A stretch of 63,385 nucleotides of DNA, the filler included, from Chrysochromulina tobinii (Eukaryota), in the NCBI GenBank assembly GCA_001275005.1. It is 5 parts of 5 records of this genome, joined end to end, with 100 filler letters (N's around TTAATTAATTAA, not from the genome) between each part and the next. Parts side by side here need not be neighbours in the genome. Positions count along the whole stretch, not along the records: positions 37,532 to 57,102 come from JWZX01001306.1; 4 more parts are not named here. The stretch is one strand, 5' to 3'. The position numbers and the translations under genes were made by a program. Positions 2,285 through 62,358 of this stretch are shown here, piece by piece. Numbering within the stretch: the stretch's first letter is position 1; each line of letters starts with the position of its first letter. A model generated the notes under the pieces. The model had not been told where the DNA came from. It was given only the letters and a program-made list of their open reading frames with translations, and made no database searches.

Positions 2285-3460
2285 TCAAGTAAAGGGGTTG
2301 CCGTCGAAGCGATCGTAACCGCCCACTCCGCTCTCTCTCATTCCACCCAGCTGCGAGCCGGTCTCGACGAACTTATTGTTCCATCGCCCCAAGTAGTCTG
2401 TCTTACGCAGTTCCCAATTGAAGACGCGATTAGGTGAGAGCTGGCTGAAGCCAGGGACATCGAACATTCCGTGGTAGTCTGACCAGTAATTCGAGGATCT
2501 CCCCCCTCGCAATTGATAGAGAATCTCGTCCCTCGCCCACGCCTCGTTTGCCTTGTAGAGCCTGAGCCCCTGCAGCGCATTCGGCCTTGAGTAGCTCGGT
2601 GTGCTGTCCCACTCTGGTTGCTGGTTGCTCAAGCTGGGCGCCGAAGACGAAGAACGCATAAAGCGGCTCCCGGTCCCATTACCAGGTGGATGCCTGTCCC
2701 CGCCACTCGAGGCCCCGCCACCAAAGGAGGCGCGCCTCGGATCCCACGCCTCAAATCGAGGCACGGCACTGCCAAAGGGATGCACGATGTTGGAGTAATT
2801 GCCCGCCGTGCGCAAATGGCTACCATACGGTTTCCTCTCCTCAGCCAAGTGTGGGTCCCTCGACGTCAACCCTGCACCGTAAGTACTCTCTGGCGGCGAA
2901 TTAAAGGAAGACTGCTTCTTGAAGCGCGATGAATACTCAGCGTCTGTTGGCCACACAATCCGCTCAGAAGACTCTCCTGATTCTGAGCGGCGCGATGAAT
3001 TGGCTGAATTCTTCCTGCCACTGCTGCGTGCGCTGGCACTCGTCGCACCTGCGGGCCGAAGCCGCCGCGCCGAGGTTGCACGTCTTGGAGTCTTTTTCTC
3101 TCCGGTCGCTTCCTGGCTGGCGACCTGCTTCCTCGGTGTCGCCTTGGTAGCGCTCTGAGCTTCAATTTTCGTGCTCCTGGAGCTCGTTGGAACTGACTTG
3201 TGGATCCTCGGTGGTGTTGTTGCGTTGCGGATCAAGGTGGCAAGCACGTCCGGCTCTTCGAACTTGGGTGATATGGAAGTCTGCGGCATCGTGGAAGGTT
3301 CTCCAGTCTCGAGTGGACCTGGCGTGGCCTGGTCGATCTTCTCTCGAGAGGCTCGGTCTTCTCTCGAGAGGCTCGATGATAGTGGCGCACTTGGTTGGGG
3401 CCACTGCTTCATCAGCGTCAGCGCCGGCGGCAAATTTCTTTGGTAGTCCTCTTTCCACAT
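2285..3460 (-). CDS. Hypothetical Ser/Arg-rich protein
   Basis: Single long ORF (about 390 aa from ATG 3460) with a disordered N-half and a more globular-looking C-terminus. No family recognised. Confidence 0.55.
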   Translation of the reverse strand: MWKEDYQRNLPPALTLMKQWPQPSAPLSSSLSREDRASREKIDQATPGPLETGEPSTMPQTSISPKFEEPDVLATLIRNATTPPRIHKSVPTSSRSTKIEAQSATKATPRKQVASQEATGEKKTPRRATSARRLRPAGATSASARSSGRKNSANSSRRSESGESSERIVWPTDAEYSSRFKKQSSFNSPPESTYGAGLTSRDPHLAEERKPYGSHLRTAGNYSNIVHPFGSAVPRFEAWDPRRASFGGGASSGGDRHPPGNGTGSRFMRSSSSAPSLSNQQPEWDSTPSYSRPNALQGLRLYKANEAWARDEILYQLRGGRSSNYWSDYHGMFDVPGFSQLSPNRVFNWELRKTDYLGRWNNKFVETGSQLGGMRESGVGGYDRFDGNPFT

Positions 3461-4606
3461 GGTCAGGTGCTGATTGTGGAGGTGTTGAACGCACGCTGAC
3501 GCACTAAGAAGCAGCACAGAACCAGGCTGCAGACGGGAGGCAGGAAGAGCCCTGCAACGAAGACCGTGAGGACCGCGAGAAAGCTCGCTCCGAGTGCGTT
3601 TTGGGGAGAATGTCGTTTCACTTATTTCACGCTATTTTTGGAGCCAAAGTTGGGTGCAACGACACGCATGAAGAAAAAACGACAACGCGGCGGCCTCGCA
3701 GCTCGCACCGAGTAATCCCTGTGGACCAACGCGGCCTGGGCCGATGCTAAAAATGTTTAAAATGGCTATCTGTTGATATCTGAGCAAGTTCCAAGGTCCA
3801 AGGAGAATAACGGGGCTCGGGGGTGCTATACGTTGCTTCTTGAGGGCACAATCGTGAAGCCGCACGATGTCCGACCTGTCGCCGGCGCTGTTCGCACTGC
3901 AGGGTGAACGGGCCGATGAACGGGTCAGAAAACGCCCAGCTTTGGGTCCATCTCTCGAGCCACCTCCTTGCTCTTCCGACGCCAGCTATCGCGGTAGCGG
4001 ATTTGCCCGCATTTAATATGATTATTTTCAGATAAGTCCCAGGATTATAACCACACATGAAATGATGGCAGATGGACACGTTTTGACACGTTTTGGCGAT
4101 TATAGCGGTACATTTTCGTCCCGTTTGATTTACGGTTAACGATTCGTGTCGTGTAATAACATCTGTGGTTTCGATTAGGATGACCAGCGTTGTCCGTTGA
4201 ACTTTCCCCCATCACCCCTATTTCGGAGCACAACTTACGTCAATTTACAGACCGTGAACCCCTAGTGCTAGTCGCTTCCGTTCCTCGCAACTCGAACTCC
4301 CCGAGGTGCCTCGAAGTCGAGTTTTTCGGCGGTGCATCCCTCGCGTGTCGGCCTGTGCCTCCTGATCCCCCCCGCTACGCGGCCCCCCGCCTAAGGCCAT
4401 GCACACCATCGATTTGCCGCCGCACCCCACTGCTCATCGACGACGCGCGCGCCTTAGACGAGGGGCACTAGAGGGGCACACCAATGCGCGGTCTCCGCAC
4501 ACGTACGGCTCGAGAAACGAGATCGAACGCATACCCACACGCGAGCCGACGAGCAGTGAGTCAAGCTGCCCGTGGACTTCTCAGCGTGCCTCAAGCGTGC
4601 CCGGTG

Positions 4607-6306: not shown

Positions 6307-9300
6307 ATGGCAGCCTTTGCCGAGCTTGGCCTCGACGCGCCGATTGTGCGCGCAGTCGAAGACCTCGGCTGGCTCCTCCCCACGCCCGTGCAGCAGGAGG
6401 CGATCCCCTTAATCCTCGGCGGCGGCGACGTCATGGCTGCCGCCGAGACGGGCAGCGGCAAGACGGGGGCCTTTGCACTGCCCGTTCTCCAGATCTGCCA
6501 CGAGGCACTGCGCGAGCAGGCAGCCGCCTCATCGCAGCCAAAGATCGCTGCGCTCGCGGCGGCGGCCGCACGCGCGCAGGCCGCGGGTGGCATAGGTTTC
6601 GGCAGCGATCGCGACGGTCTGCTTCAGGTGAGCGCGCAAGGGCTCGAGTGCTCGTGTGGGGCCGCGCAGGCGTGGGCGGGCGGGCGGGCGGGCGTGGGCG
6701 TGACGGGCGGCCGTTACTACTACGAGGTGGAGCAGCTGGGCGATGGGCTCTGCCGCGTCGGCTGGGCCACCCTCTCGGCCAAGCTCGCGCTCGGCACCGA
6801 CATGATGGGCTTCGGTTTTGGGGGGACCGGAAAGAAGTCCAACGGTAACCAGTTCGTCGTCTACGGAGACTCGTACTCGCGCGGCGACGTGATCGGTTGC
6901 GAGCTCGATCGCGAGATCGGCTCGATGACCTTCTACAAGAATGGCGTGAGCCTCGGAGAAGCGTTCTCGGTGCCGCCGACGCTCAAGGGCATGGCGCTCT
7001 TCCCCGCAATTTGCCTCAAGGGCGCCGCAGTGCGCGTCAACTTTGGCGCTCAACCCTTTTATGCAAACTTCCTTCCCGGCGGCGTGCATGCACTCTACGC
7101 GATCGCTCCCGAACATTCGGCCACCAACTCGGCCGCCACCTCTAGCAGCAGGGACGCCACTGCCTGTGCCGGTAGCCGCGGCGGCGGCGGCGGTGGCGGC
7201 GGTGCTGATGGCGACGGGCGCGTACCGACTGCCTTGAGTAGGCAAGACTGCATGTTCTTTGCCCAAGGCCGTTGTAAATGGGGCGCACAGTGCCGATACG
7301 CGCACCCGCCACCGACCCAGCCGCCACCGACCCAGCCGCCATCGACCCAACCGCCATGGACCCAGCAGCCTCCCGGGAAGCCGTCACCCACCCCGAAACT
7401 GTCACCCGCCACCTCGCACTCGCTGCTCAAGCAGATCGAGTACTACTTCTCGGACAACCTGCCCAATGACGAGTTTATGCAGGTGGAGATTTCCAAGGAC
7501 GACGATGGCTGGGTCGACCTGACCGTCATCGCCGGCTTCAACCGCATCAAGCAGCTGCTGCCGTCGGGCAGCGTCGTGGCACTCGCCGAGGCTCTGAAGG
7601 CGTCCAAGCAACTGGCAGTGTCGGAGGATAGCACCAAGGTTAGGCGCCGGCCGTCCTATCGGCTCAGGTCGAACATGCGGGTGCTCGTCGGCGCGTGCGA
7701 CGGACGACGCAGTGTTCCCTTCAAACGTGACTTCCCGCCGGGCGAGGATGCCCTACGTGCAGCCTTCGCGAGTTTCGACGCGGACGGCAATGGGCGGCTC
7801 GACACGGTCGAGATCCAGCAGGCGCTCTCTCAGCTTGGCATGGCCGCCAGCTCGTCGGAGGCATTCGCAGTCCTCCAAAGGTACGATACCGACTGCTCGG
7901 GCGGCCTTGAGGTGGCCGAGTTTGCGAGGCTCGTCCATGAACAAGGCCCTGTTCCGATGTCGGTCAGCGTGGACAGCGGCGAGGTGGTCGCCATCCTCGA
8001 CAGCGTGGACAGCGGCGAGGTGGTCGCCATCCTCGACGAGACGCCCAAATTCGACCACATCCTCGTCGCCCGCCAGGACGGCGTGCAAGGCTACATCCGT
8101 GTGCGAAACCTGCACGTGCAAGCGTGGCCGTTAAGACAACGGCAACTGTCGCTTTCAGCCACGCTGACGAGCCACAGGTTTGTTTGGTCCTCGGGCGAGT
8201 TACAGCAGCGCGGCGCTTTCAGCATCGATGGACAATACCTTACCCACGGCTCGTCGCGACACAGGGTGACGGTGCTCGGCTCGCACGCCTTCAGCGTCGA
8301 AGGGTGGGGCGGCTACCTCCTTCTCCTTGATGCCGCGCGCACAGAAATCGTCCTCTGGGACGGCGCGGCCGTCATCAACATCGCACGCGCCAAGGGTGTG
8401 GCCGCGGCGACGGGGGCCGCGCCGGCGCTCGCGCATGGCTGGCAGGGCGTGTTTACATGGGCCAAGCATGATCAACCCGAAAACATGGGGATCCAGTGCA
8501 GCGTAAGTGGCGACGGCAAAACATTCGTGTACTGGGGCAGCGAACCTCCATCTCCGATCGTATTGATCACCCCACACGCGTGGCACCACGGCAACGGCAC
8601 TCGCGTGCACCTGCTGGATGATTCTAGCGACGGCCAATCGACGCAGCGCGCACTCACCATTTGGACACCCTCCGTCGTCGCCGCGTGCATTGCATTCCCC
8701 ACGACCTACGCCGGGCAGTACGGCGCACCGGCGGATGCGTGGCGACTTGCGCCGGGTAGGTGTGTGATTGCGGGCAACGCGACGCACGCTAGCGGCGGCA
8801 TGCTGCTGCGCCGCCGGCCGGACCTCTCGCTCGATGCCGCCAACCGCACGGACATGCAGATCTTCGATGGCGATGTATGCACTGTGCTCGAGGTTGCGGA
8901 TGGTCTCGCGGTACCACCGTCAGCAGCGTCGGCAGGAGCGGCAGGCGAGGGTCTCAGTACCTGCGCCTGGGTACGCGTCCGCAAGACCGGCGTTGGAGAA
9001 GGCTGGCTGAGCACCAACAACGTCCACATCCAAGGCCACGGCTACGCCCCCGCCGTGAAGGTGGCCGCAGCGGAAAAGGCAGGAGCTGAGGGCATGGAGT
9101 GCAGTTTCTGGTTCGTCAACGCGGACAGCCTGCGGAGCGCTTGGCAGTCAAGCCTGCCGATGATGCAGACACTACGCACACAAGAACCACACAGACTCGT
9201 CCAGAAAACGATCAGCTTCATCGAGGGCATCAAGGGCGCCTATAAGAACATTCTCGTCGTGAGCCATCGATGGGAGACGCCGACAGATCCAGATCCGACC

Positions 9301-10087
9301 GGCGCGCAGGCTTTGGCGGTGCAGGCCTACTTGTTAGATCATCCGGAGATCGACGCCGTGTGGTTCGACTTCAGCTCAATGCCCCAAGGGCAGAAGAAGA
9401 CTGAGCGCGAGTCCGCCGAGTTCAAAGAGATGCTCCCCAACATCAACCTGCTCTACCTGACGTGCTCCGTCCTTATTCTCATGGATCGGAGCTACATGAA
9501 CCGATTCTGGACGCAGTTCGAGGCGTACCTGAGCATGCGGGCGATCACGAGCGAGGGTCTGACTAACGCTTTGGATCCAAAGGCGCGTGTGACCATCAAG
9601 ACGGCTGATGACCCCAGATGACCCCTGTTGGCCCCTGTTGACCCCTGATGACCACTGATAACCACTGATGACCACTGAGTGCCTTCCTCATCAGGCGCGT
9701 GTGACCATCATGACGCTCTACAACCTTCCCCCGATCATGGGCACGGCGCTCATGGACGAGTGGTCGAACAAGACGCCTGACGAGGCTCACGCGATCCTCG
9801 CGGGGCAGGATGTGATGGTCACCAACCAGAGCGACAAGGACATCCAGCTCGCTAAGCTCAAGGTGCTCAACAAGCGCCTCCGGTTGCCATTGATAGCCTC
9901 TGATGGCTCATGATTGACTCCAAAATGACTCTGATTCCTTTTGTATGCTCGCTAAGCTCGAGGCGCTCAAAGCGCCTCTGATTGGCCCTGGTGGTTTCTG
10001 AGTCACCTGATGACCACTGAGTACCTCCCTCATCAGGTGCTCAACGAGCGAGCCCAGTGGGCGTACGCGCGCTCTCTCGATGCCTGA
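6307..10087 (+). CDS. Multidomain fusion: DDX1-like Q motif/Walker A + SPRY, CCCH zinc finger, La motif, EF-hand pair, SH3-like segments, C-terminal HET-like domain (exons 6307-9582, 9695-9862, 10037-10087)
   Basis: FAELGL..PTPVQQEAIPLILGGGDVMAAAETGSGKT; SPRY (YYYEV..CRVGWAT..GDVIGC..LFPAICLK); CMFFAQGRCKWGAQCRYAH; LLKQIEYYFSDNLPNDEFM..GWVDL..FNRIK; DADGNGRLD and DTDCSGGLE; VSHRWETPTDPDP..VWFDFSSMPQ..NINLLY..YMNRFWTQFE. Two phase-0 introns restore one frame to a TGA at 10085. Confidence 0.8.
9583..9694 (+). other. GC-AG exon-echo intron
   Basis: AAG|GCGCGTGTGACCATCA...10-nt repeats...CCTCATCAG|GCGCGTGTGACCATCA. The first 16 nt are identical to the next exon start. Phase 0, frame restored. 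Confidence 0.75.
9863..10036 (+). other. GT-AG exon-echo intron
   Basis: AAG|GTGCTCAACAAGCG...CCCTCATCAG|GTGCTCAACGAGCG, with a second internal degenerate copy of the junction (CTCGCTAAGCTCGAGGCGCTCAAAGCG). Confidence 0.75.
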
Positions 10088-30140: not shown

Positions 30141-32780
30141 CTACCAAAGGGAGCTATCTTCCTCCTTCTCTTGCGAGCAACAAACAAAGAGATTGAAAAG
30201 CAAAGTGCCGAGGCACAGCCCCTTGCAATCCACGTCCTCGTCGCCCCCCCTCGGATCGCACCCCAGCTGCGGGCACAAGGCCATGTGGAGGTACGCCGGC
30301 AGAAAGTACCACCGATCCGTGGGCACGCAGCCAAAGATCGCCTCGCCGTCCGCCGAGACGCAGCAGCACGGCGCCAGTGGCTTGCAGCAGTCGGCGCAGG
30401 GGCCGCGAAAGTGCTTGACCTGCTCTGGCGTCCCGCATCCAGAGATGCAGGAGAGGCAAGTACCACCGGGCGGTTGCGGGCCGCCGAGACGCACGTATCC
30501 ATGCTCCGTGCACACACAGCATCCAGAGAGGCACGATCCGGCGGCCGAACGCAAGGCTTGCAGCGACGCCGCTCGAGCGGCGGATGCCAGAGCCGCTTGC
30601 GCGGCCGACAGCTCCGCGGCGGTCGCAACGGTGCACGTGAGCGCCGGCTGCGCGGCCCACGCAGAGCCCGTCCACGCTTGCCATGTCGCGGAGCTCGCAT
30701 CCGGGCTGGCAGCAGCTTCGTCCGTGAGCATCAGAGCGCCCCTCTTCTGACCAAGGTCGGCCTCAGGCTGCCCACGCCAGTCAGCTCCGTCGAATGCAAC
30801 CCAGCAGCGTCCGTCCGTGTGCTTCCACGTGGGCCGGCCGTTTACACGCTTATTGCCGTCGAGCATGTAGATGCCCACGTACTCGGCCGCGGCGCCATAC
30901 AGCGAGCCGCCCTCGAGCTTGAGCCCAGGCGGCGGCGGCGGCGTCCACGGGATGCACTTGAGCTGCGGCTGCGCGGCCCCCGCAGCGCCTGGAACCTTGG
31001 CCGCGAGCCACGTCGCAGAACTCGCCCCCGGGCTGGCCGCATCCGCGTCCGGGAGCAGCAAAAGGCCCCACCTCTGGCCAAGGTCGGACTCGGGCTGCCC
31101 ACGCCAGTTGACTCCGTCGAATGCGAGCCAACACGTGAGATGCGCCGTGTGCCGCCACACGGGCCGGCCGTTTACGAGCCTGCTGCCGTCGAGACGGTAC
31201 TCGCCCATGAACTCGGCCGCGTCGCCGGGCAGCGAGCCGCCCTCGAGCTTCAGCCCACGAGGCGGCGGCGGCGTCCAAGGGATGCACTTGAGCTGCGGCT
31301 GCCCAGCCCACGCAGTGCCCATCCACGCTTGCCACATCGCAGGACTCGCGTCCGGGGAGGCGGCCGCTGCGTCGGAGAGCTGCAGATCGCCCCGCCCCTG
31401 ACCAAGCCTCGACTCCACCTGTCCCATCCAGCGAGCGCCGTCGAATGCAAGCCAGAGCGATGCATCCACGGTGTGCTGCCACGCCGGCCGACCGTTGACA
31501 AGCTTGCCGTCGACGAGTAGGAACTTGCCGAGGTACTTGGCACGATCTCCGGCCAGCGAGCCGCCCTCGAGCTTGAGCCCGGGCGGCGGCGATAGGACCC
31601 GCACCTCGTCCCACGCGTGCCCCGCGGTCCACGTGGCTCCGTCGGGCCTCACCTGAAGCGGCGCCACGGAGACCACCGTGCCGACTTGCCAGCTTTCGCC
31701 GCGGTCGCGGCACTCGACGCGTTCGTTGAGCTTGAAGCTGTGCGATGGGGGCTGCGGCGTGGGCTTGGAGGCAGCGGCGTTCCCCGTCGTCGCACCCTCG
31801 CGATCCATGACCAAGGGGTTGATTCCGAACAAGCTCCCCACCTTGTCGCGTGCAGAGTCGAAGAGCTGCGAAAGCGGGCCGTCGGCATTTCGCAGATCTT
31901 GGTCGAAGCACGTACCTAGCTCGCCGGAGCCACGCTCTCCGAGCTCCACCACGTACGCGCCCTTCGCCGCGTCGTACGTCGTCACATGGCCGAGACGCTT
32001 CTCTCCGTGGCCTTGATCCACGTATACGCGGCTGCCGACGGGGAAGCGCGGCCCACCTGACGGCCCACCGGAGGGTTTGGTGGGCGGAGGCGGCTGCGGC
32101 GTGGGCGTGCTCGTGGCAGGGCTCGCCGGTGCCGGAAGAAGTTTCTCGAGCTCCGCCACGATGTCTTCCAGGGCTGTGGCTCTGTTGAGCACCGTGCCGG
32201 GGTTGGGGATGTTATTGAGCTTGTTAAGTTTGGCTTGTGCGCGAAATTTCATCATCTCCCACTCCTGGTCCTCGAGGTTCGTCCACTGCTCCTCTTTGGC
32301 GGGCAATTTGTCCTCAAAGCGCACTGGTAGAAGAGCGATCTTATTCTCGATGGCAGTGCTGATCTCTTTCAGGCACGGCTTGGACTGGAACAATCCCGCG
32401 GTGAGGATGATGATTAGCACCTTCGGCTTCTCACGCTTCCCATTCTCGCCATTCAGGCGCAGCATAAAGGTCTCCCAGTCCACGCCCGGGGGCACTTGTA
32501 GCCCAGAGAAGCACTGCAGGCCGCGCTCGTGGAGGAACTCCATCAGCCCCTTGGCGTATATCACGCCGGGCCCGGAGCCTTCGCAGTCGTCTGCAGCGTC
32601 TTTGCGATTCGTACGGCGACCCGATGCATACGACAGAACAATGGAGGGGAAGTAATCCTTGTACTGGACGCCTTTGGGGAGCTGCATGCGTGCTTGGCGC
32701 TTGCATCCTTCCAACTGTTCGATTGTGATCGCGCGTGGCACAACGAAGCGGTCCCCATGCGCCTCAGGGAGAAATTCCAT
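30141..32780 (-). CDS. TIR-like domain protein with Tudor/Agenet-like segments, three ~110-aa tandem repeats and a Cys-rich C-terminus
   Basis: IVLSYASG..FSGLQVPPGVDW..KVLIIILTAGLFQSKPCLKEI..LLPVRFE (TIR-like, with the conserved Glu); FPVGSRVYV and FKLNERVECRD..WQVGTV; 3x PPPGLKLEGGSL..VNGRP.W.H..WLAFDG..W.GQ..QPQLKC. Confidence 0.75.
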   Translation of the reverse strand: MEFLPEAHGDRFVVPRAITIEQLEGCKRQARMQLPKGVQYKDYFPSIVLSYASGRRTNRKDAADDCEGSGPGVIYAKGLMEFLHERGLQCFSGLQVPPGVDWETFMLRLNGENGKREKPKVLIIILTAGLFQSKPCLKEISTAIENKIALLPVRFEDKLPAKEEQWTNLEDQEWEMMKFRAQAKLNKLNNIPNPGTVLNRATALEDIVAELEKLLPAPASPATSTPTPQPPPPTKPSGGPSGGPRFPVGSRVYVDQGHGEKRLGHVTTYDAAKGAYVVELGERGSGELGTCFDQDLRNADGPLSQLFDSARDKVGSLFGINPLVMDREGATTGNAAASKPTPQPPSHSFKLNERVECRDRGESWQVGTVVSVAPLQVRPDGATWTAGHAWDEVRVLSPPPGLKLEGGSLAGDRAKYLGKFLLVDGKLVNGRPAWQHTVDASLWLAFDGARWMGQVESRLGQGRGDLQLSDAAAASPDASPAMWQAWMGTAWAGQPQLKCIPWTPPPPRGLKLEGGSLPGDAAEFMGEYRLDGSRLVNGRPVWRHTAHLTCWLAFDGVNWRGQPESDLGQRWGLLLLPDADAASPGASSATWLAAKVPGAAGAAQPQLKCIPWTPPPPPGLKLEGGSLYGAAAEYVGIYMLDGNKRVNGRPTWKHTDGRCWVAFDGADWRGQPEADLGQKRGALMLTDEAAASPDASSATWQAWTGSAWAAQPALTCTVATAAELSAAQAALASAARAASLQALRSAAGSCLSGCCVCTEHGYVRLGGPQPPGGTCLSCISGCGTPEQVKHFRGPCADCCKPLAPCCCVSADGEAIFGCVPTDRWYFLPAYLHMALCPQLGCDPRGGDEDVDCKGLCLGTLLFNLFVCCSQEKEEDSSLW

Positions 32781-42674: not shown

Positions 42675-44126
42675 TCACCTGCTTTTCAAGCAAGCTTCAA
42701 TGAGCAGATCAAGCACATCATCAGGAAACTTCATGCTGTATTTGTTCAGCCACAGCAGCAGCAAGACGAATCGCTGTGTGGTATGATTGAACATCAAATG
42801 ATCTTTGCGAGACCAATAGACCATATTCCAGACTTTGATCGTCTGGTCGATCGATCCCGACACGATCTTGGTCCCGTCCGGGGAGAACGCCACCGACATG
42901 ATCCATTTGCTGTGTGCGTTCATCTTCTCGCTCAACAGCTCCAGTTTGCCTGCCAGACAAGCCAACAAGCATCAGTTTTGGCCAAGGAGGGGCGATTTGA
43001 GGGCTGCAGCGCACCCGACTCCCAGACTTTGATCGTCCCGTCGTCCGACCCCGACACAATCTTGGTCCCGTCCGGGGAAAACGCCACTGAGTTGATGCAG
43101 TCGCTGTGGGCGTTCGTCTTCTCGATCAACTGCTCCAGCTTACCTGCCAGACAATCCAGCAGGCGTCAGTTTTGGACAGGAAAGCGCCATTTAAGAGCTC
43201 TGGCGCACCAGACTCCCAGACTTTGATCGTCCCATCAGCCGACCCCGACACAATCTTGGCCCCGTCCGGGGAAAACGCGACCGAGATGATGTCCCCGCTG
43301 TGGGCGTTGGTCTTCTCGCTCAACAGCCCCAGTTTCCCTGCCAGACAAGTCAGCAGGCGTTAGTTTCGGTCAAGGAGGGGTGATTTTGAGGGCTCTGGCG
43401 CACCAGACTCCCAGACTTTGATCGTCCGGTCTTCCGATCCCGAGACAATCTTGGTCCCGTCCGGGGAAAACGCCACCGACCTTATCCATCGGCTGTGGGC
43501 GTCGGTCTTCTCGCTCAACAGCTCCAGTTTTGCTGCCAGACAAGCCAGCAGGCGTCAGTTTTGGCAACGGAGGAGCCATTTGCGTGGCGCACCCGAACCC
43601 CAGACTTTGATCGTCTCGTCGTCCGATCCCGACACAATCTTGGTCCCGTCCGGGGAAAACGCCACCGAGTTGATGTCCCCGCTGTGGGCGTCCATCTTCT
43701 CGATCAACTGCTCCAGCTTGCCTGCCAGACAATCCAACAGGCGTCAGTTTTTGCCAAGGAGGAGTGATTTTGAAGGCTCTGAGGCACACCCGAATCCCAG
43801 ACTTTAATCTTGACCTCGCCTTCCTCCTCATCAAAAGTCTCATCAAATTCTTCCCACGAAGTGACAGCGATGCCGTTGATAGACATAAGTGTGCACCCAT
43901 TCCCATAGGCATCATTAATCGCAGTCTGGTCTTCCTTGGAGGCAACAAAAGTACGTTCTCCGACTGGCTGATCTCTCAATTCCCAGACTTTCATCGTCCC
44001 ATGATCCGATCCCGACACAATCTTCGTGCCATCGGGCGAAAAGACGACCGAGATGATGGCATCGCTGATTGTGTCGGTGTGGGCGTTCGTCTTCTCCGCT
44101 ATACAGTTGATGAGCATCGCGATCAT
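42675..44126 (-). CDS. WD40-repeat protein, copy A (exons 44126-43790, 43721-43593, 43532-43404, 43337-43209, 43143-43015, 42949-~42675)
   Basis: Four internal 129-nt phase-1 exons each encode one [43 protein letters not shown] repeat, separated by homologous 60-68-nt GT-AG introns. Start codon and last exon are uncertain. Confidence 0.85.
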
Positions 44127-49921: not shown

Positions 49922-51566
49922 TCACCTTCTTTGCAAGCAAGCTTCGATGAGTAGATCAAGCACATCATCCGGAAACTTCATAGTGTACTTGTTCAGCCAC
50001 AGCAGCAGCAAGACGAGCCGCTGGGTGGTATCCTTGAACATCAAATGATCTTTGCGAGACCACTTGACCATATCCCAGACTTTGATCGTCCCATCAGCCG
50101 ATCCGGACACAATCTTGGTCCCTTCCGGGGAAAACGCCACTGACGAGATCCGTTCGCTGTGGGCGTTCTTCTTCTCGCTAATGAGCTCCAGTTTGGCTGC
50201 GAGAGCCAACAGGCGTCAGTTTTGGCCAAGGAGGGGCGATCTTGAGGGCTCCGGCGCACCTGAATCCCAGACTTTGATAGACTTGTCGTCCGATACCGAC
50301 ACAATCTTGGTCCCGTCCGGGGAAAACGCCACCGACAAGACATAGCTGCTATGCGCGTCCGTCTTCTCGCTCACCAGCTCCAGGCCTACCAGACAAGCCA
50401 GCAGGCGTCAGTTTTGGCCAAGGAGGTGCCATTCATTTGATGGCAAAAGCGCACCTGAATCCCAGACTTTGATCGTCCCGTCGTCCGACCCCGACACAAT
50501 CTTGGTCCCGTCCGGGGAAAACGCCACTGAGTTGATGCAGTCGCTGTGGGCGTTCGTCTTATCGATCAACTGCTCCAGCTTACCTGCCAGACAATCCAGC
50601 AGGCGTCAGTTTTGGACAGGAAAGCGCCATTTAAGAGCTCTGGCGCACCAGACTCCCAGACTTTGATCGTCCCATCAGCCGACCCCGACACAATCTTGGC
50701 CCCGTCCGGGGAAAACGCGACCGAGATGATGTCCCCGCTGTGGGCGTTGGTCTTCTCGCTCAACAGCCCCAGTTTCCCTGCCAGACAAGTCAGCAGGCGT
50801 TAGTTTCGGTCAAGGAGGGGTGATTTTGAGGGCTCTGGCGCACCAGACTCCCAGACTTTGATCGTCCGGTCTTCCGATCCCGAGACAATCTTGGTCCCGT
50901 CCGGGGAAAACGCCACCGACCTTATCCATCGGCTGTGGGCGTCGGTCTTCTCGCTCAACAGCTCCAGTTTTGCTGCCAGACAAGCCAGCAGGCGTCAGTT
51001 TTGGCAACGGAGGAGCCATTTGCGTGGCGCACCCGAACCCCAGACTTTGATCGTCTCGTCGTCCGATCCCGACACAATCTTGGTCCCGTCCGGGGAAAAC
51101 GCCACCGAGTTGATGTCCCCGCTGTGGGCGTCCATCTTCTCGATCAACTGCTCCAGCTTGCCTGCCAGACAATCCAACAGGCGTCAGTTTTTGCCAAGGA
51201 GGAGTGATTTTGAAGGCTCTGAGGCACACCCGAATCCCAGACTTTAATCTTGACCTCGCCTTCCTCCTCATCAAAAGTCTCATCAAATTCTTCCCACGAA
51301 GTGACAGCGATGCCGTTGATAGACATAAGTGTGCACCCATTCCCATAGGCATCATTAATCGCAGTCTGGTCTTCCTTGGAGGCAACAAAAGTACGTTCTC
51401 CGACTGGCTGATCTCTCAATTCCCAGACTTTCATCGTCCCATGATCCGATCCCGACACAATCTTCGTGCCATCGGGCGAAAAGACGACCGAGATGATGGC
51501 ATCGCTGATTGTGTCGGTGTGGGCGTTCGTCTTCTCCGCTATACAGTTGATGAGCATCGCGATCAT
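49922..51566 (-). CDS. WD40-repeat protein, copy B (one extra repeat exon 50385-50260; divergent last exon from 50196)
   Basis: Same exon-intron cassette structure as copy A, with an additional 126-nt exon ([29 protein letters not shown]) and a different final repeat (HSERISS..). Confidence 0.85.
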
Positions 51567-53794: not shown

Positions 53795-56700
53795 TCACCG
53801 ATGGATGTCGAGCGCTGGGTACATCTTGCGAGCGCCCTTGCTCTTGGGCACGTCCTCCCGCAAGGGCGGCGCGGTCGGCAGGAGCATCTCGCCCCGTATG
53901 AGCAGCTTGGGCGCCGAGACCACCGGTGCGGCGCTGTGCGGGCACGCATGCGGCATGATCAGGAGCTTGCCGCGCCGCGGCGCCGAGCGCGCAAGCACGT
54001 GGCGTTCCCCGGGGGCCACGCCACCTGATGAGGGATGCACTCAAGCAGTCATCAGAGGCCATCGGAGGTAATCAGAGGTCATCAGAGGGCGCTCTTCGGG
54101 GGCCACGCCACCCGCGGCTGCGAGCTTGGCGTCGCCCGGCTTGGCCTCGAGGAGGAGCGTCTCGCCACCGTACTCGCAGTCGGTCAGGTAGAGCAGGAAG
54201 CTGTGCGTCGTGCGCACCCCCTGGGTATTCACACCCCCTTCAACTTGCCGCGGCTGGTCCGGATGGGTATTCACACCACCCTCGGGTATTAACACCCTCG
54301 GCAGGTCCACATGGGCAGGTAGCGAGCCGCCCGGTGACGGGTAGTGGAGGAATCGCATCAGGGGCAGCGTGCCGTAGCGGCGCGGCGCGGCAGAGCACGC
54401 AGGCTGGCCCTCGTAGAGCGCGCACATCGTCGTGGCATCGTCGTCGATGGCGGGCTTGCGGACTGGCACGCTGGGAGCGCTGGACGGTGCCGGTGCCGGT
54501 GCCGGTGCCGGTGCCGGTGCCGGGGATGGTGATGATGCCGGTGCCGGTGATGGTGATGATGCCGGTGCCGGTGATGGTGATGATGCCGATTTCGGTGATG
54601 CCGATGGTGACATTCCTGCCTGCATGCTCGCCACCCGTACTTGGTACTCCGCGCGGGTGCGACAATCGCTCTCGATGAAGCTCGGCAGGTGCCCGCTACG
54701 GCGCTCGCACTCCCGCGCCTCCTCCTCCGCCGCCCATCGGAGCACTTCGGGGCGACCACCGAGAGTGGCGGCGCCCACGACGACGCTCCAATCCCACGGG
54801 CACCCGTTCCGATGGGCCCACCTGAGCAGGGGCAGGTGCCCCGCCCATGCCGCCGCCTGCCCCACCTCCTCGTTCCAAGGCGCCCCTTCGAGACGAAGCT
54901 GCTGCAGCCGGCCGAGCTCTCCATACCTAATGAGGGAGGCAATCAGATGCCATCAGAGGCCATCAGAGGCAATCAGGGCCGTGAGCCAGCCGAGCTCTCC
55001 ATACCTAATGAGGGAGGCAATCAGATTCAATCAGAGGCAATCAGAGGCAATCAGGGCTGTGAGCCGGCCGAGCTCTCCATACTTGGCAGCGAGTCCGCAC
55101 GGTCGGTAGTCTGGCGGGGGTGGCCGACGGGGCGGGGGGTGCCGATGGCGCGGGCGGCTGCGGGTGCTTCAACTCGAGCGCCGTGTCGAGCGCCGTCCGT
55201 GGCATAAATCGAGCGGCGGCCTTGCCAGCCGCAGCGGCGGCAGGACCCGCGACATCATCACTACTGTCGCCATCATCACCACTGCCGCCATCATCACCAC
55301 TGCCGCCACCATCACCACTGCCGCCGCATCCATGGGCTTGCAGCACGTCATGCTGTACGCCGTCGGCGGCTCGCGCGCCGTCGTCGCTCGCTGCTGCCCG
55401 CTCGGGCATCAGGCCAACGGCCACGAGCGCCGTGTCGAGCGCCGCACAGAGCCAGCCGTCCACGTCCGCATAGTAGCTGCGGTCGATGGGCGACGGCTTG
55501 TCCTTTGGGGCGACGGGCAGCGCGCGCCAGAGCTGCACGATCGCATCGAGGCACGCGGGATGCAGCGCCGTCTCGAGCACGAGCGTTCCCGCGCCGGGGT
55601 GCGGCGCGAGCGAAGCAGGCAGGAGGGTCGTCACCGTGGGCACGTGGCCAGTCGGGACCTCGAGCATCTCGCCATCGCTCGCGCCTGGGCGCCGAGTCAC
55701 CGCCTTATGCGCCAGCAACGCCTTCCGCAGCAGCGGCTGCAACTGGGCAAACGACCGATGCTCCGTCGCCTCGCATGCAGCGTGCAGGCTCGCGGCCAGT
55801 TCCGCGTGCCCCGCCGCCGCCGCGGCCGCTGCCGGTAGCCAGCCGCCGTTGGCCGTGAGGGTGGCGCGCGCTCCAAGGGCCAGCAGCTCGCGCGCGGCCT
55901 CGGCATGCCCATGCTCGGCGGCTAGAAAGAGGGCGGTGCGCCCGTATTCGTCTTGCCCATCCAGCCGAGCGGACCGCTTGCCGATGCATTCAAGGATGAG
56001 CCGCAAGTCCCCACGCGCCGCCGCGGCGCGCAGCCGAGCATCGTCCATCGAGCGCGTCGCATCGCCCGCCTGCAGCGACGCGACGAACTCGGCCCATGCC
56101 GCCGCCGCCGCGCCGTCCGGGCGCGTGATCCGCGCGCACACGCGCGCCACGAGCTCGTCGTGCCGTCGTCGAGCGCAGTGTTGGTCGCTGAGGGCGTCCG
56201 AGCTGCTCACCTGTGGGAAAGAGGGCGGGCGCGCCGTGGTGGGCACTTGCATGCAAGGCAGAGGGCAGAGGGCGTCGAGCTGCTCACCAGAGGCGCATTC
56301 TTGCTCGTCTCTCGGGCCTTGGCCAAAAAGTACGCCTTGCCCGCGCGCACGAGGCCCGGGTTGGGGGCCTGCTTGGCGGCAGGCTTGCTGGCGGCGTCGG
56401 CGCCCTCGAGGAGGGAGCAGCCCACCTGATGAGGGAGGCGATCAGCATGCCATCGGAGATGCAATTAAAGGCCATCCGGAGGCTCGATGCTCGAGGAGCA
56501 TGCAGCCCGCCTCGGCATGCGGCCACTCCTGATGAGGGAGGAAATCAGCATGCAGCCCACCTCGGCATGCGGCCAGTACCAAGCCGCGCGCGTCGCCTCG
56601 GGCGGCGCCGGCATCAGGGGCGGACGCGGCGCTGGCGACGCCGCCGTAGTGGGCGCCCACGACGGCGCTGATGACGACGGCGCTGGTGATGACGCAGTCG

Positions 56701-56836
56701 TGGGCGCCCACGACGGCGCCCGTGGGAGTGGGAGTGGGAGTGGGAGTGGGAGTGGGAGGTAGTCCTCGGCGACGTCCCTCTCGAAGCTGAAGGAGACGAG
56801 CCGTTGGGATTCGGAAGGCGCGAGCGGCGTGGCCAC
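53795..56836 (-). CDS. Multi-exon ankyrin-repeat + 2OG-Fe(II) oxygenase (prolyl 4-hydroxylase-like) gene, 5' end cut by contig end
   Basis: GRTALFLAAEHGH ankyrin; AAAWAGHLPLLRWAHRNGCPWDW repeat; LMRFLHY..HVD..FLLYLTDCEYGGET..PHACPH..KLLIRGE. Introns 54025-54111, 54927-55082, 56211-56287, 56426-56560 and one ending at 56837. The frame between about 55083 and 55200 needs one more intron or a frameshift. Confidence 0.7.
54025..54111 (-). other. Exon-echo intron
   Basis: G|GTGGCGTGGCCCCCG...CTGATGACCTCTGATTACCTC...CCCTCATCAG|GTGGCGTGGCCCCCG. Phase 1, frame restored. Confidence 0.8.
54927..55082 (-). other. Exon-echo intron made of two tandem 78-nt units
   Basis: Each unit is GTATGGAGAGCTCGGCYGGCT (copy of next exon) + (TGATTGCCTC)-like repeats + CCTCATTAG. 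Confidence 0.75.
56211..56287 (-). other. Exon-echo intron with a different 3' module
   Basis: GTGAGCAGCTCGACGCCCTC...TGCATGCAAGTGCCCACCACGGCGCGCCCGCCCTCTTTCCCACAG|GTGAGCAGCTCGGACGCCCTC. Phase 0, in frame. Confidence 0.78.
56426..56560 (-). other. Compound exon-echo intron with two CCCTCATCAG modules
   Basis: GAG|GTGGGCTGC...CCTCATCAG, then an internal copy of the junction (TGGCCGCATGCCGAGGCGGGCTGCATGCTCCTCGAG), then CCCTCATCAG|GTGGGCTGCTCCCTCCTCGAG. Phase 0. Confidence 0.72.
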
Positions 56837-57102
56837 CTGATGAGGGAGGCAATCATGGGTCATCAGAGCCGTTGGGATTCGGAAGGCGCGAGCGGCGTGG
56901 CCACCTGATGAGGGAGGCAATCATGGGTCATCAGAGCCGTTGGGATTCGGAAGGCGCCAGCGGCGTGGCCACCTGATGAGGGAGGCAATCATGGGTCATC
57001 AGAGCCGTTGGGATTCGGAAGGCGCGAGCGGCGTAGCCACCTGATGAGGGAGGCAATCATGGGTCATCAGAGCCGTTGGGATTCGGAAGGCGCGAGCGGC
57101 GT
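56798..57102 (-). repeat. 68-bp tandem repeat (about 4.5 units) = 39-nt exon copy + TGATGACCCATGATTGCCTCCCTCATCAG
   Basis: CTG acceptor complements at 56837, 56905, 56973 and 57041 (period 68). The array runs into the contig end. Confidence 0.92.
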
Positions 57103-57202
57103 NNNNNNNNNNNNNNNNNNNNNNNNNNNNNNNNNNNNNNNNNNNNTTAATTAATTAANNNNNNNNNNNNNNNNNNNNNNNNNNNNNNNNNNNNNNNNNN
57201 NN
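57103..57202. other. Artificial contig linker
   Basis: 44 N + TTAATTAATTAA + 44 N. Confidence 0.97.
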
Positions 57203-60772: not shown

Positions 60773-62358
60773 GTGGGGATAAGTGTTGTTTTTTAACGAA
60801 AGTGGTGTTGTTTTTTAACATACGCATTCTAATGCATTAATGCATTTTGATGTATTTTCATCATTTTCATTGCATTTCATCAAAATGCATTCTTCACCGG
60901 CTGCATGGTACTGCATATAAATGCATTTATATGCATTCATGTATGATGCATTCTGATATTGATGCATTTTCTTACATTCATACGCATTTTCAATGCTGCA
61001 TTTGGTACAAGGTGCATTCATGTGCATTTAAATGCATCCTATTATGGTGCATTTTCTTAGCTTGTTGCATTCTCGTGCATTCATTGCACAAGATGCATTC
61101 ATGTGCATTCTTTGTATGTTGCATTCTATACATGCCGCATCTTAACGCATTCCAATACATTCTTAGCTTGGTGCATTTTGATTTTTGAATGTGCTGCATT
61201 CTACCTGTGATGCATTCAGTTGCATTATTATGTATTCCGGTGCACTTAGGAGGATTTAACAGGGCAAGTACAAGCTCGTGTGCGACAAGAACGGCGAGGG
61301 CTGGGCGTACCTGTGGGCCTGGGCGGCGACGAGCAACGCCACGAGCCTGACCATCGACGACCTCGACGGAGCGAAGGAGCTCGAAGAGGAGGACGAGGAC
61401 GAGGATGAGGGCCTGGATGATCAGCTGCTCGATGACCTCGACGCGGTCATAGTCTCTGGCGGCAAGACCGTGGACGAGATCAAGGCGATGCACGTCCTCG
61501 AGAAGAAGAAGCACGCCGAGGTGTGCAACAAGAACCGCTCCATCTCGGCGCAATCCGTCAACGAGCTGGCGACGAAGATGGGCTGCCCGTCCGACTACAC
61601 CACGAAGCTGTCCAAGCTGGGCTGGATCTTTCTGCAGCTGCAGGCATGAGAATGCATGCAAATGCATACATATGCATACGAATGCATACGAATGCATACG
61701 AATGCAAACGGATACATATGAATGCAGACGAATGCATACACGAGTGAGCATACACAAGTGAATGCATCTGCGTACACTAGTGAATGCGTGTGTGAATGAA
61801 TGCATCTGAATGCACTTGAATGCGTAAGAATGCGAGTGCGTCAGAATGCAACGTGTCGACAGAATGCACCTTATGTGGGGAGGCATTTGAATACATTTGA
61901 ATGCAACTCATGTAGAATGCAACGCACTGCAAATGCACAATAATACATATGAATGCACCGTAATCGGAATGCACTAAGATGCAGCTATTAAGACTTTATT
62001 AAGACTGCATCGAAATGCGTTACAATGCGTCACGCCACGTATGCATCACGTGGCGAATGCATCAACATGAAGCGGACCTTCTGGATGCATGAAAATGCAT
62101 GAAAATGTAACATGTCGATGTCATGCAGCAGGTATGAAAATGCATCAGAATGCAACCGTCTCGCATCGGAAGAATGCAGCAGCTCAAAGTGGTTGCAAAA
62201 TGCGTTCGAATGCAACTGATTTGTAGAATGCAGCGCGTCTGAATGCATGCAAAAAACAATGAAATGCATATGAATGCACTCGCATGCATACGAATGCACA
62301 TGAATGCGTATGGGAAAAAACAACACCACTTTCGGGGAAAAACAACACTCATCCCGAG
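60773..62358. mobile_element. Non-autonomous foldback-type DNA transposon with 54-bp TIRs, long TGCATT/AATGCA subterminal arrays and a captured coding fragment (61263-61649)
   Basis: TIRs 60776-60829 and 62302-62355 (GGGATRAGTGTTGTTTTT..GAAAGTGGTGTTGTTTTTT..CATACGCATTC). GACCAC direct repeat flanks both ends (60767-60772, 62359-62364). Left arm is rich in GCATT, right arm in AATGC. Confidence 0.8.

Follow-up and report, generated by a model that had tools for sequence, protein, structure and literature searches.

An intron of the alga Chrysochromulina tobinii ends in a tandem array in which each unit joins a copy of the start of the next exon to a segment bearing a branch point and acceptor. 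We consider it probable that this array is the 3′ part of a single spliceosomal intron, created by a slip-back duplication and then amplified to about five or six units. The array lies on the minus strand of a 63,385-nt stretch of DNA, called the window in what follows, which is composed of five contigs joined by N-linkers.

Architecture of the array

TRF reports a period of 68 nt with 4.5 copies, 98% matches and a score of 596 at positions 56798-57102. The array meets the end of its contig at 57102, and the N-run that follows in the sequence (57103-57202) links unrelated contigs. Each 68-nt unit consists of a 39-nt ‘echo’, which is a copy of the start of the next exon, and a 29-nt filler that provides the branch point and acceptor; these 29 of 68 nt are the part shared with the wider filler family. 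Two decamer-like repeats in the filler are followed by CCTCATCAG, and its conserved end is CCCTCATCAG. The window contains 15 occurrences of the acceptor motif, where 1.71 would be expected. Echo and filler meet at a microhomology of 3 nt.

The template of the echoes is the first 39 nt (56798-56836) of the true downstream exon (56561-56836, minus strand), where relatives carry the same residues uninterrupted by an intron. Upstream of this exon, on the same strand, the sequence contains three complete units (56837-57040) and one partial unit (57041-57102). The 3′-most unit (56837-56904) comprises an echo at 56866-56904 and a filler at 56837-56865, with its terminal acceptor CAG at 56837-56839 and an in-frame TGA after the echo. 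Unit 2 (56905-56972) and unit 3 (56973-57040) carry one echo substitution each, at 56958 and 57035 respectively, and the existence of unit 3 is further documented by depth in DNA run X1. The partial unit 4 retains 62 of 68 nt, lacking its first 6 nt at the contig end, and further units together with the 5′ part of the intron lie outside the window. The first-pass annotation had described four 68-nt units; the array, the 39-nt echo and the CAG|GT junctions (3/3 internal junctions in the window) were read correctly, but only three of these units are complete. GT at the exon start means that CAG|GT is re-formed at every junction, and each unit therefore possesses a donor, a branch-point-like motif and an acceptor.

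Depth of the array in sequencing runs

Three DNA runs and four RNA runs (X14-X17) were examined, all as assembled contigs rather than raw reads, and contig depth served as a rough gauge of unit number. Words sampled from the gene were recovered at 92-95% in 13 DNA runs and at 30-46% in six RNA runs, and the best-matching DNA run may itself be the source of the window. In DNA run X2, the echo-filler contig has a depth of 263.4 and the pure-echo contig a depth of 243.3, compared with 45.9 for the single-copy exon (5.7x and 5.3x). DNA run X1 holds a separate contig for the variant unit 3 at a depth of 102.8, versus 42-45 for single-copy sequence (~2.3x); DNA run X8 has no single-copy record and so gives no depth ratio. 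These values suggest an array of about five to six units, or ~340-410 nt, which is longer than the version assembled, and the array likely broke the short-read assembly.

An assembly artefact at the contig end might be suspected given that the array runs into an N-linker and that the assembled number of units differs from the true number. However, this is exceedingly improbable, as evident by the 5.3-5.7x depth of the unit contigs, by the unit-specific substitutions that have a DNA contig of their own, and by the many stacks that occur in mid-contig in other assemblies. The same depth excess speaks against a single misassembled unit and for a real array, as the first-pass annotation had proposed.

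Host gene and neighbouring introns

Downstream of the array, the host gene continues on the minus strand through four other introns. Next to the exon that templates the echoes is a compound intron of 135 nt (56426-56560), which begins with a 9-nt echo, contains an internal acceptor (56529) 32 nt from the donor that is followed by GA, and duplicates 15 nt from the end of the upstream exon. Its earlier description as the same kind of stacking does not hold, since the duplication of the upstream exon and the GA after the inner acceptor mark a different event. Introns at two metagenome loci, L040 (+, ~3040-3950) and L018 (+, 7930-8136), likewise include copies of the end of the upstream exon, as well as one intron in which own and foreign units alternate.

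An exon (56288-56425) separates the compound intron from a 77-nt echo intron (56211-56287) of a second filler family, which ends in TTTCCCACAG and whose splicing is deduced from the reading frame and homologues. This family carries an exon echo too, and its summed DNA depth of 10,724, versus ~45, indicates that it has many relatives. An exon with ankyrin repeats recognised by Pfam (55083-56210) follows, and then a second stack (54927-55082, present in DNA run X1), for which TRF gives a period of 78 nt, 2.3 copies and 93% at 54906-55082. Its two 78-nt units have 21-nt echoes, TAG acceptors and an internal TAG|GT, and differ at 5 of 78 positions, which bears out the earlier reading of this interval as true stacking. 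Beyond the next exon (54112-54926) are a single 87-nt echo intron with a 15-nt echo (54025-54111), which is removed in RNA run X14, and the last coding exon (53795-54024), which ends with the stop codon.

Base 55134 is present in the window and missing from the covering contigs of DNA run X1 and RNA runs X14 and X15; it is an extra base of the assembly that creates a false frameshift. Once this base and the four other introns are removed whole, a single frame of 861 codons results. Any 68- or 78-nt unit that is retained introduces an in-frame stop, and so all units must be removed. Homologues of the host gene match PF13640 and carry the source name ‘TruA’, and an Atlas lead (0.86) is ankyrin plus prolyl-hydroxylase-like. 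A further ORF of this contig matches, with 97% identity across 43% of its length, a EukProt protein named as Chrysochromulina.

Elsewhere in the window, echo introns of the array’s filler family are found on the plus strand at 9583-9694, with a GC donor and a 21-nt echo, and at 9863-10036, where the end of the upstream exon is also repeated. The window holds other repeats as well. Tandem repeats of 194-195 nt at 42828-43809 and 50072-51249 (5.1 and 6.1 copies by TRF) presumably each comprise one WD40-type coding repeat plus an intron, and they look like two related copies in which duplication of exon-intron pairs has multiplied an intron. At 30680-31319, TRF reports a repeat with a period of 330 nt (1.9 copies, 80% matches). 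An ATGCAT-rich stretch of ~1.5 kb (~60780-62350), bounded by imperfect inverted repeats of ~40 nt noted by eye and situated inside sequence that resembles a retroelement reading frame, is possibly a non-autonomous DNA transposon.

Stacked units in metagenome loci

A metagenome scan for two acceptors 35-95 nt apart returned at least 133 stretches from at least 131 loci, which represent several assemblies of few strains, so that the counts below are not fully independent. At least 131 loci and the window together contain 265 distinct terminal acceptors with filler, 128 single and 137 stacked, numbers that are biased by the double-acceptor bait. Stacks range from two to ten units, with 102 of the 137 having two, among the matches listed plus the window. 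Acceptor clusters that flank the bait and were thus unselected, counted in full context only and with one bait per locus left out, are single in 71 cases and multiple in 30 (n = 101; 78 flanked loci among the matches listed). Echo length spans 11-46 nt between the 5th and 95th percentiles (147 units among the matches listed), and unit number shows no clear rise with it, stacks of three or more units making up 6/34, 13/45 and 7/29 in successive length classes of the matches listed. The double-acceptor search gave no match in viral contigs. No exact copy of the array’s own filler occurs among the 131 loci listed, and loose ends in runs X14 and X16 suggest a copy elsewhere. One locus, L053, shares its unit and downstream exon with L070 and its upstream sequence with L020, and reflects either a rearrangement mediated by the repeat or chimeric assembly.

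Origin of the stacks

Among the matches listed, the 20 nt that precede the conserved end are at least 95% alike between adjacent units in 80/136 stacks, versus 1.1% of random pairs. When the 11 stacks at locus edges and the 22 in which the last unit has no clear echo are set aside from the 137, 104 classifiable stacks remain among these matches. They divide into 37 whole-unit and 9 near-whole copies (46/104 together), 11 single cis junctions, 19 cases of shared filler with a gap, and 28 with unshared filler, and the filler is common to a neighbouring unit in 76/104. Homologous loci also differ by one unit, as with L062 (three units) and L127 (four units). The proposal of slippage or unequal exchange is supported by these proportions of whole or near-whole copies and shared fillers, and by the one-unit differences between homologous loci.

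The junctions themselves point to copying guided by short homology. At strict echo-filler junctions, microhomology of at least 3 nt is present in 17/48 cases versus a null of 6.2% (121 clean units), and a looser filter yields 28/71 versus 6.4%, all among the matches listed. On the opposite side, 2/11 single cis junctions among these matches are devoid of microhomology. Echoes stop preferentially at points of resemblance between the exon and the decamer. A before-and-after pair is provided by L088, which has a non-echo intron, and L018, which has the same intron plus one echo unit whose filler is copied from the upstream filler.

Units have also been copied between unrelated genes, as evident by three copies that carry the exon letters of the donor gene. 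The copy of L031 in L050 has one mismatch in 61 nt and is joined at a 7-nt microhomology, that of L028 in L131 is exact over 62 nt, and a unit of L072 lies inside L018 with three mismatches in 74 nt. A strict foreign-echo filter gave six matches from 5/110 donor units among the matches listed, versus 2/550 in the null, and these comprise two real pairs, one reciprocal, one low-complexity and one own-locus case; the L072/L018 case was found with a looser filter and then checked. The 130 matches of a loose foreign-echo filter were discarded as mostly artefacts of mis-called exons, and aligning partly overlapping loci globally gave mostly noise.

From these observations, a plausible course for the array can be drawn. 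A filler-type intron with a donor, decamer repeats and CCCTCATCAG would have been gained at a CAG|GT site, leaving the protein unchanged. Copying that continued into the exon and then slipped back onto the filler would then have produced a tandem duplication across the 3′ splice site, and with it the first echo-plus-filler unit. The join would have been made at a short microhomology between exon and decamer, a step proposed for the array by reference to the L088/L018 pair. Whole units were then likely multiplied by slippage or unequal exchange, with the two point changes marking this history; whole-unit multiplication in the array is evident from both sequence and depth. Acting in trans, this template switch is likely to copy fillers from one gene to another, which would explain the spread of the family, and one template-switch process may accordingly be proposed to give stacks in cis and filler spread in trans.

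The alternative is repeated re-insertion, in which a mobile filler (an introner or a retroelement tail) would enter the regenerated AG|GT site with a long target duplication each time. Among the matches listed, 28/104 stacks have unshared fillers, 11/147 fillers have an exact copy at an unrelated locus, and AG precedes the donor of the 5′-most echo in 39/76 cases versus a background of 8.1%; the three inter-gene copies can be read in the same way. Target-primed reverse transcription leaves a fixed 3′ end and a variable 5′ length, and the fillers are likewise fixed at the 3′ end and variable in 5′ length. However, the units of the array share echo length, junction and filler and differ at two single bases, the exon pieces of other genes and the microhomology joins fit template switching better than a defined element, and the AG bias is expected of any working donor. 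Re-insertion is therefore an improbable origin for the array. As a general proposal it finds a place for a minority of stacks, represented by those with unshared filler and by the three inter-gene copies. Echoes that begin at the very donor, found in 31/63 stacks (5′-most unit) and 19/71 single introns among the matches listed, cannot be produced by cis duplication alone and would require either copying in trans or the loss of older sequence at the 5′ end.

Probable gain of the intron, and its 5′ end

Relatives that are 88% identical, on contigs of up to 10 kb, have ORFs that run uninterrupted through the positions of the array, compound, second-family and 78-nt introns. Judged from these ORFs, four of the five intron positions have no intron in these relatives; the position of the 87-nt intron is common to them, and there they run into filler. 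More distant homologues, one of them on a 97.6-kb contig, are also uninterrupted at the array site. No residue is added relative to homologues, and the junctions of the array are zero-length. This pattern suggests that the array intron was gained in the lineage of the window. At the 87-nt position, three relatives (P0010, P0012 and P0014) differ in a three-residue duplication at the start of the intron reading, which is a sign of local duplication there too.

Two further ORFs on 2.1-kb contigs, P0007 and P0008, encode the upstream exon and then read into a non-echo donor and filler-like sequence. Their continuation of seven residues and a stop matches filler readings of other loci, not the echo; their assignment to the strain of the window is based on shared residues, not DNA. 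A contig from the X14 RNA library contains unique sequence that ends in CAG directly before an echo, and its letters, read by hand, correspond to the residues that precede the site in P0007/P0008. On the reading of P0007/P0008, the 5′ end of the intron is probably not an exon copy, and a later duplication across the acceptor likely gave rise to the first echo. The earlier suggestion of a direct repeat created at insertion is thus doubtful for the array intron. A tblastn search found the upstream exon in neither the window nor the metagenome loci.

If P0007 and P0008 derive from the same strain, the join in the X14 contig is a splice to one of the acceptors of the array. In this contig an echo-type start follows directly on the upstream exon, and because the echo exceeds the assembler’s word length and the contig departs from the locus past the filler, use of the terminal acceptor (56837) and of an internal one look alike in it.

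Removal of the array from transcripts

In RNA run X14, contigs skip the 87-nt single intron and the whole stack of two 78-nt units (156 nt), X15 has a contig that skips the 135-nt compound intron, and DNA run X1 holds all three. An exon-derived GT is thereby seen to act as donor for introns that start with an echo, and may do so for internal units of the array. Another X14 contig retains the compound intron, and unspliced array units are present in X14, X15 and X17, which indicates that the RNA libraries contain pre-mRNA or DNA. Among the contigs of X14-X17 (depth 2-6), none has the upstream exon linked to unique sequence of the downstream exon; positions 56762-56797 have no RNA cover in X14 and X17, and this was not counted as evidence. 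Given that whole removal of the neighbouring stacks is seen in RNA contigs, the array intron is presumably removed whole as well. One-step and unit-wise removal yield the same mRNA, and we hold it quite conceivable, if somewhat short of probable, that units are removed one by one in at least some transcripts.

A stricter proposal is that recursive splicing is obligatory, with CAG|GT junctions acting as ratchet points, units being removed singly, and selection keeping units intron-sized. Each unit does possess a donor, a branch-point-like motif and an acceptor, and the junctions conform to the combined acceptor/donor pattern (y)nncag|gt (PMC2773006). Among the matches listed, units other than whole-unit copies fall below 58 nt in 1/47 cases versus 11.1% by permutation (P = 0.001), whole-unit copies do so in 3/37 versus 19.9% by permutation, and single echo introns start at 62 nt. 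This floor in unit length near 60 nt hints at recursive splicing, but could also stem from the copying process or from the filters used, and units as short as 21-49 nt also occur. In one RNA contig the upstream exon is followed by an echo and then by filler, as an intermediate would show, but this contig is a graph path built at k=31, a word shorter than the 39-nt echo, and it departs from the locus beyond the filler, so that it can be a chimera. Moreover, 14/33 internal acceptors of unselected clusters among the matches listed lack a GT or GC directly after them, and the one-unit intermediate of the 78-nt stack is absent among the RNA matches listed. On this balance, obligate unit-by-unit removal appears rather unlikely.

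Comparison with known routes of intron gain

New introns in Daphnia, in work by Li in 2009, are reportedly flanked by short direct repeats from DNA repair; Gao and Lynch in 2009 are said to have treated internal gene duplication, and Read in 2013 reportedly described intronic repeats of 10-11 bp in Emiliania, to which the decamer-like repeats bear a likeness. To our knowledge, none of these describes stacked exon-copy/acceptor units or copying between genes.

The closest precedent is the potato RdRp gene, where a tandem duplication that straddles an intron-exon boundary gave rise to an intron (Ma, Lan and Niu, 2016; PMC4974935). There, too, the duplicate comprises the 3′ portion of an intron plus the beginning of the exon that follows, with an inherited acceptor and branch site and a formerly exonic donor. 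However, the potato gain is one case that left a new exon, whereas here the junctions are zero-length and add no coding base, the donor coincides with the first base of the copied exon start, and many loci are involved, with up to ten units and inter-gene copying too. The array and its relatives are probably a variant of intron gain by boundary-spanning duplication that adds no exon and is found at many loci. As in the Rogers/Hellsten AGGT model (PMC3265369, PMC4974935), duplication regenerates AG|GT and leaves the protein unchanged; the duplicate in that model (PMC3265369) is purely exonic, whereas here each unit includes a family-wide intronic filler.

The family also resembles introners (Gozashti 2022, 10.1101/2022.06.06.494994; Gozashti 2025, PMC12130899) in that its members are numerous, were gained recently and follow the ‘co-opt 5′, carry 3′’ layout. 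Related introns do occur at many unrelated loci, their similarity being limited to the 3′ part, and the ORFs of relatives suggest a recent, lineage-restricted gain. A short target duplication of fixed length, as in DNA-transposon introners, is not found, the echoes being 11-46 nt long. Fam24 of Emiliania huxleyi is described as a small family of unknown class with the co-opt 5′/carry 3′ layout and 10-bp terminal direct repeats (PMC12130899). The introner described from Chrysochromulina sp. brings its own 5′ site and makes a target duplication of 4 bp (10.1101/2022.06.06.494994); here, in contrast, the duplication is variable, only the 3′ end is shared, and foreign exon letters are carried along. 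For C. tobinii, the 2025 survey lists 0 introner families (PMC12130899). The motif is absent from the portion of the introner-survey supplements searched, and overlap with marine Chrysochromulina introner families is possible.

The combined acceptor/donor CAG|GT inside an intron recalls ratchet points, or zero-length exons. These are described in large introns (PMC2773006), whereas here the candidate sites are spaced 60-90 nt apart in an intron of a few hundred bases, and are by-products of duplication. Our literature search, with subscription papers and some supplements outside its scope, found no account of stacked exon-copy introns in haptophytes. The available sections of 10.1101/2020.10.14.339549, PMC7138796 and PMC4580454 hold nothing closer, and those of the C. 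tobin genome paper mention introns once.

Implications

Tandem arrays of this kind break short-read contigs and gene models, and introner screens that require end-to-end similarity could miss such introns. The stacks also offer natural short substrates for asking whether the spliceosome removes abutting minimal introns singly.

We know of few proven intron gains by duplication. The process described here appears to be active at many loci in one alga, and since before-and-after as well as donor-and-recipient pairs can be read from sequence, it is directly measurable. We tentatively raise the further possibility, which we would not yet favour, that Chrysochromulina possesses a transposase-free intron generator, in which microhomology-guided template switching is combined with recursive removal of self-similar 60-90-nt units. 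If this were true, new introns would be made by copying a filler between genes and duplicating the start of the target exon as the donor.
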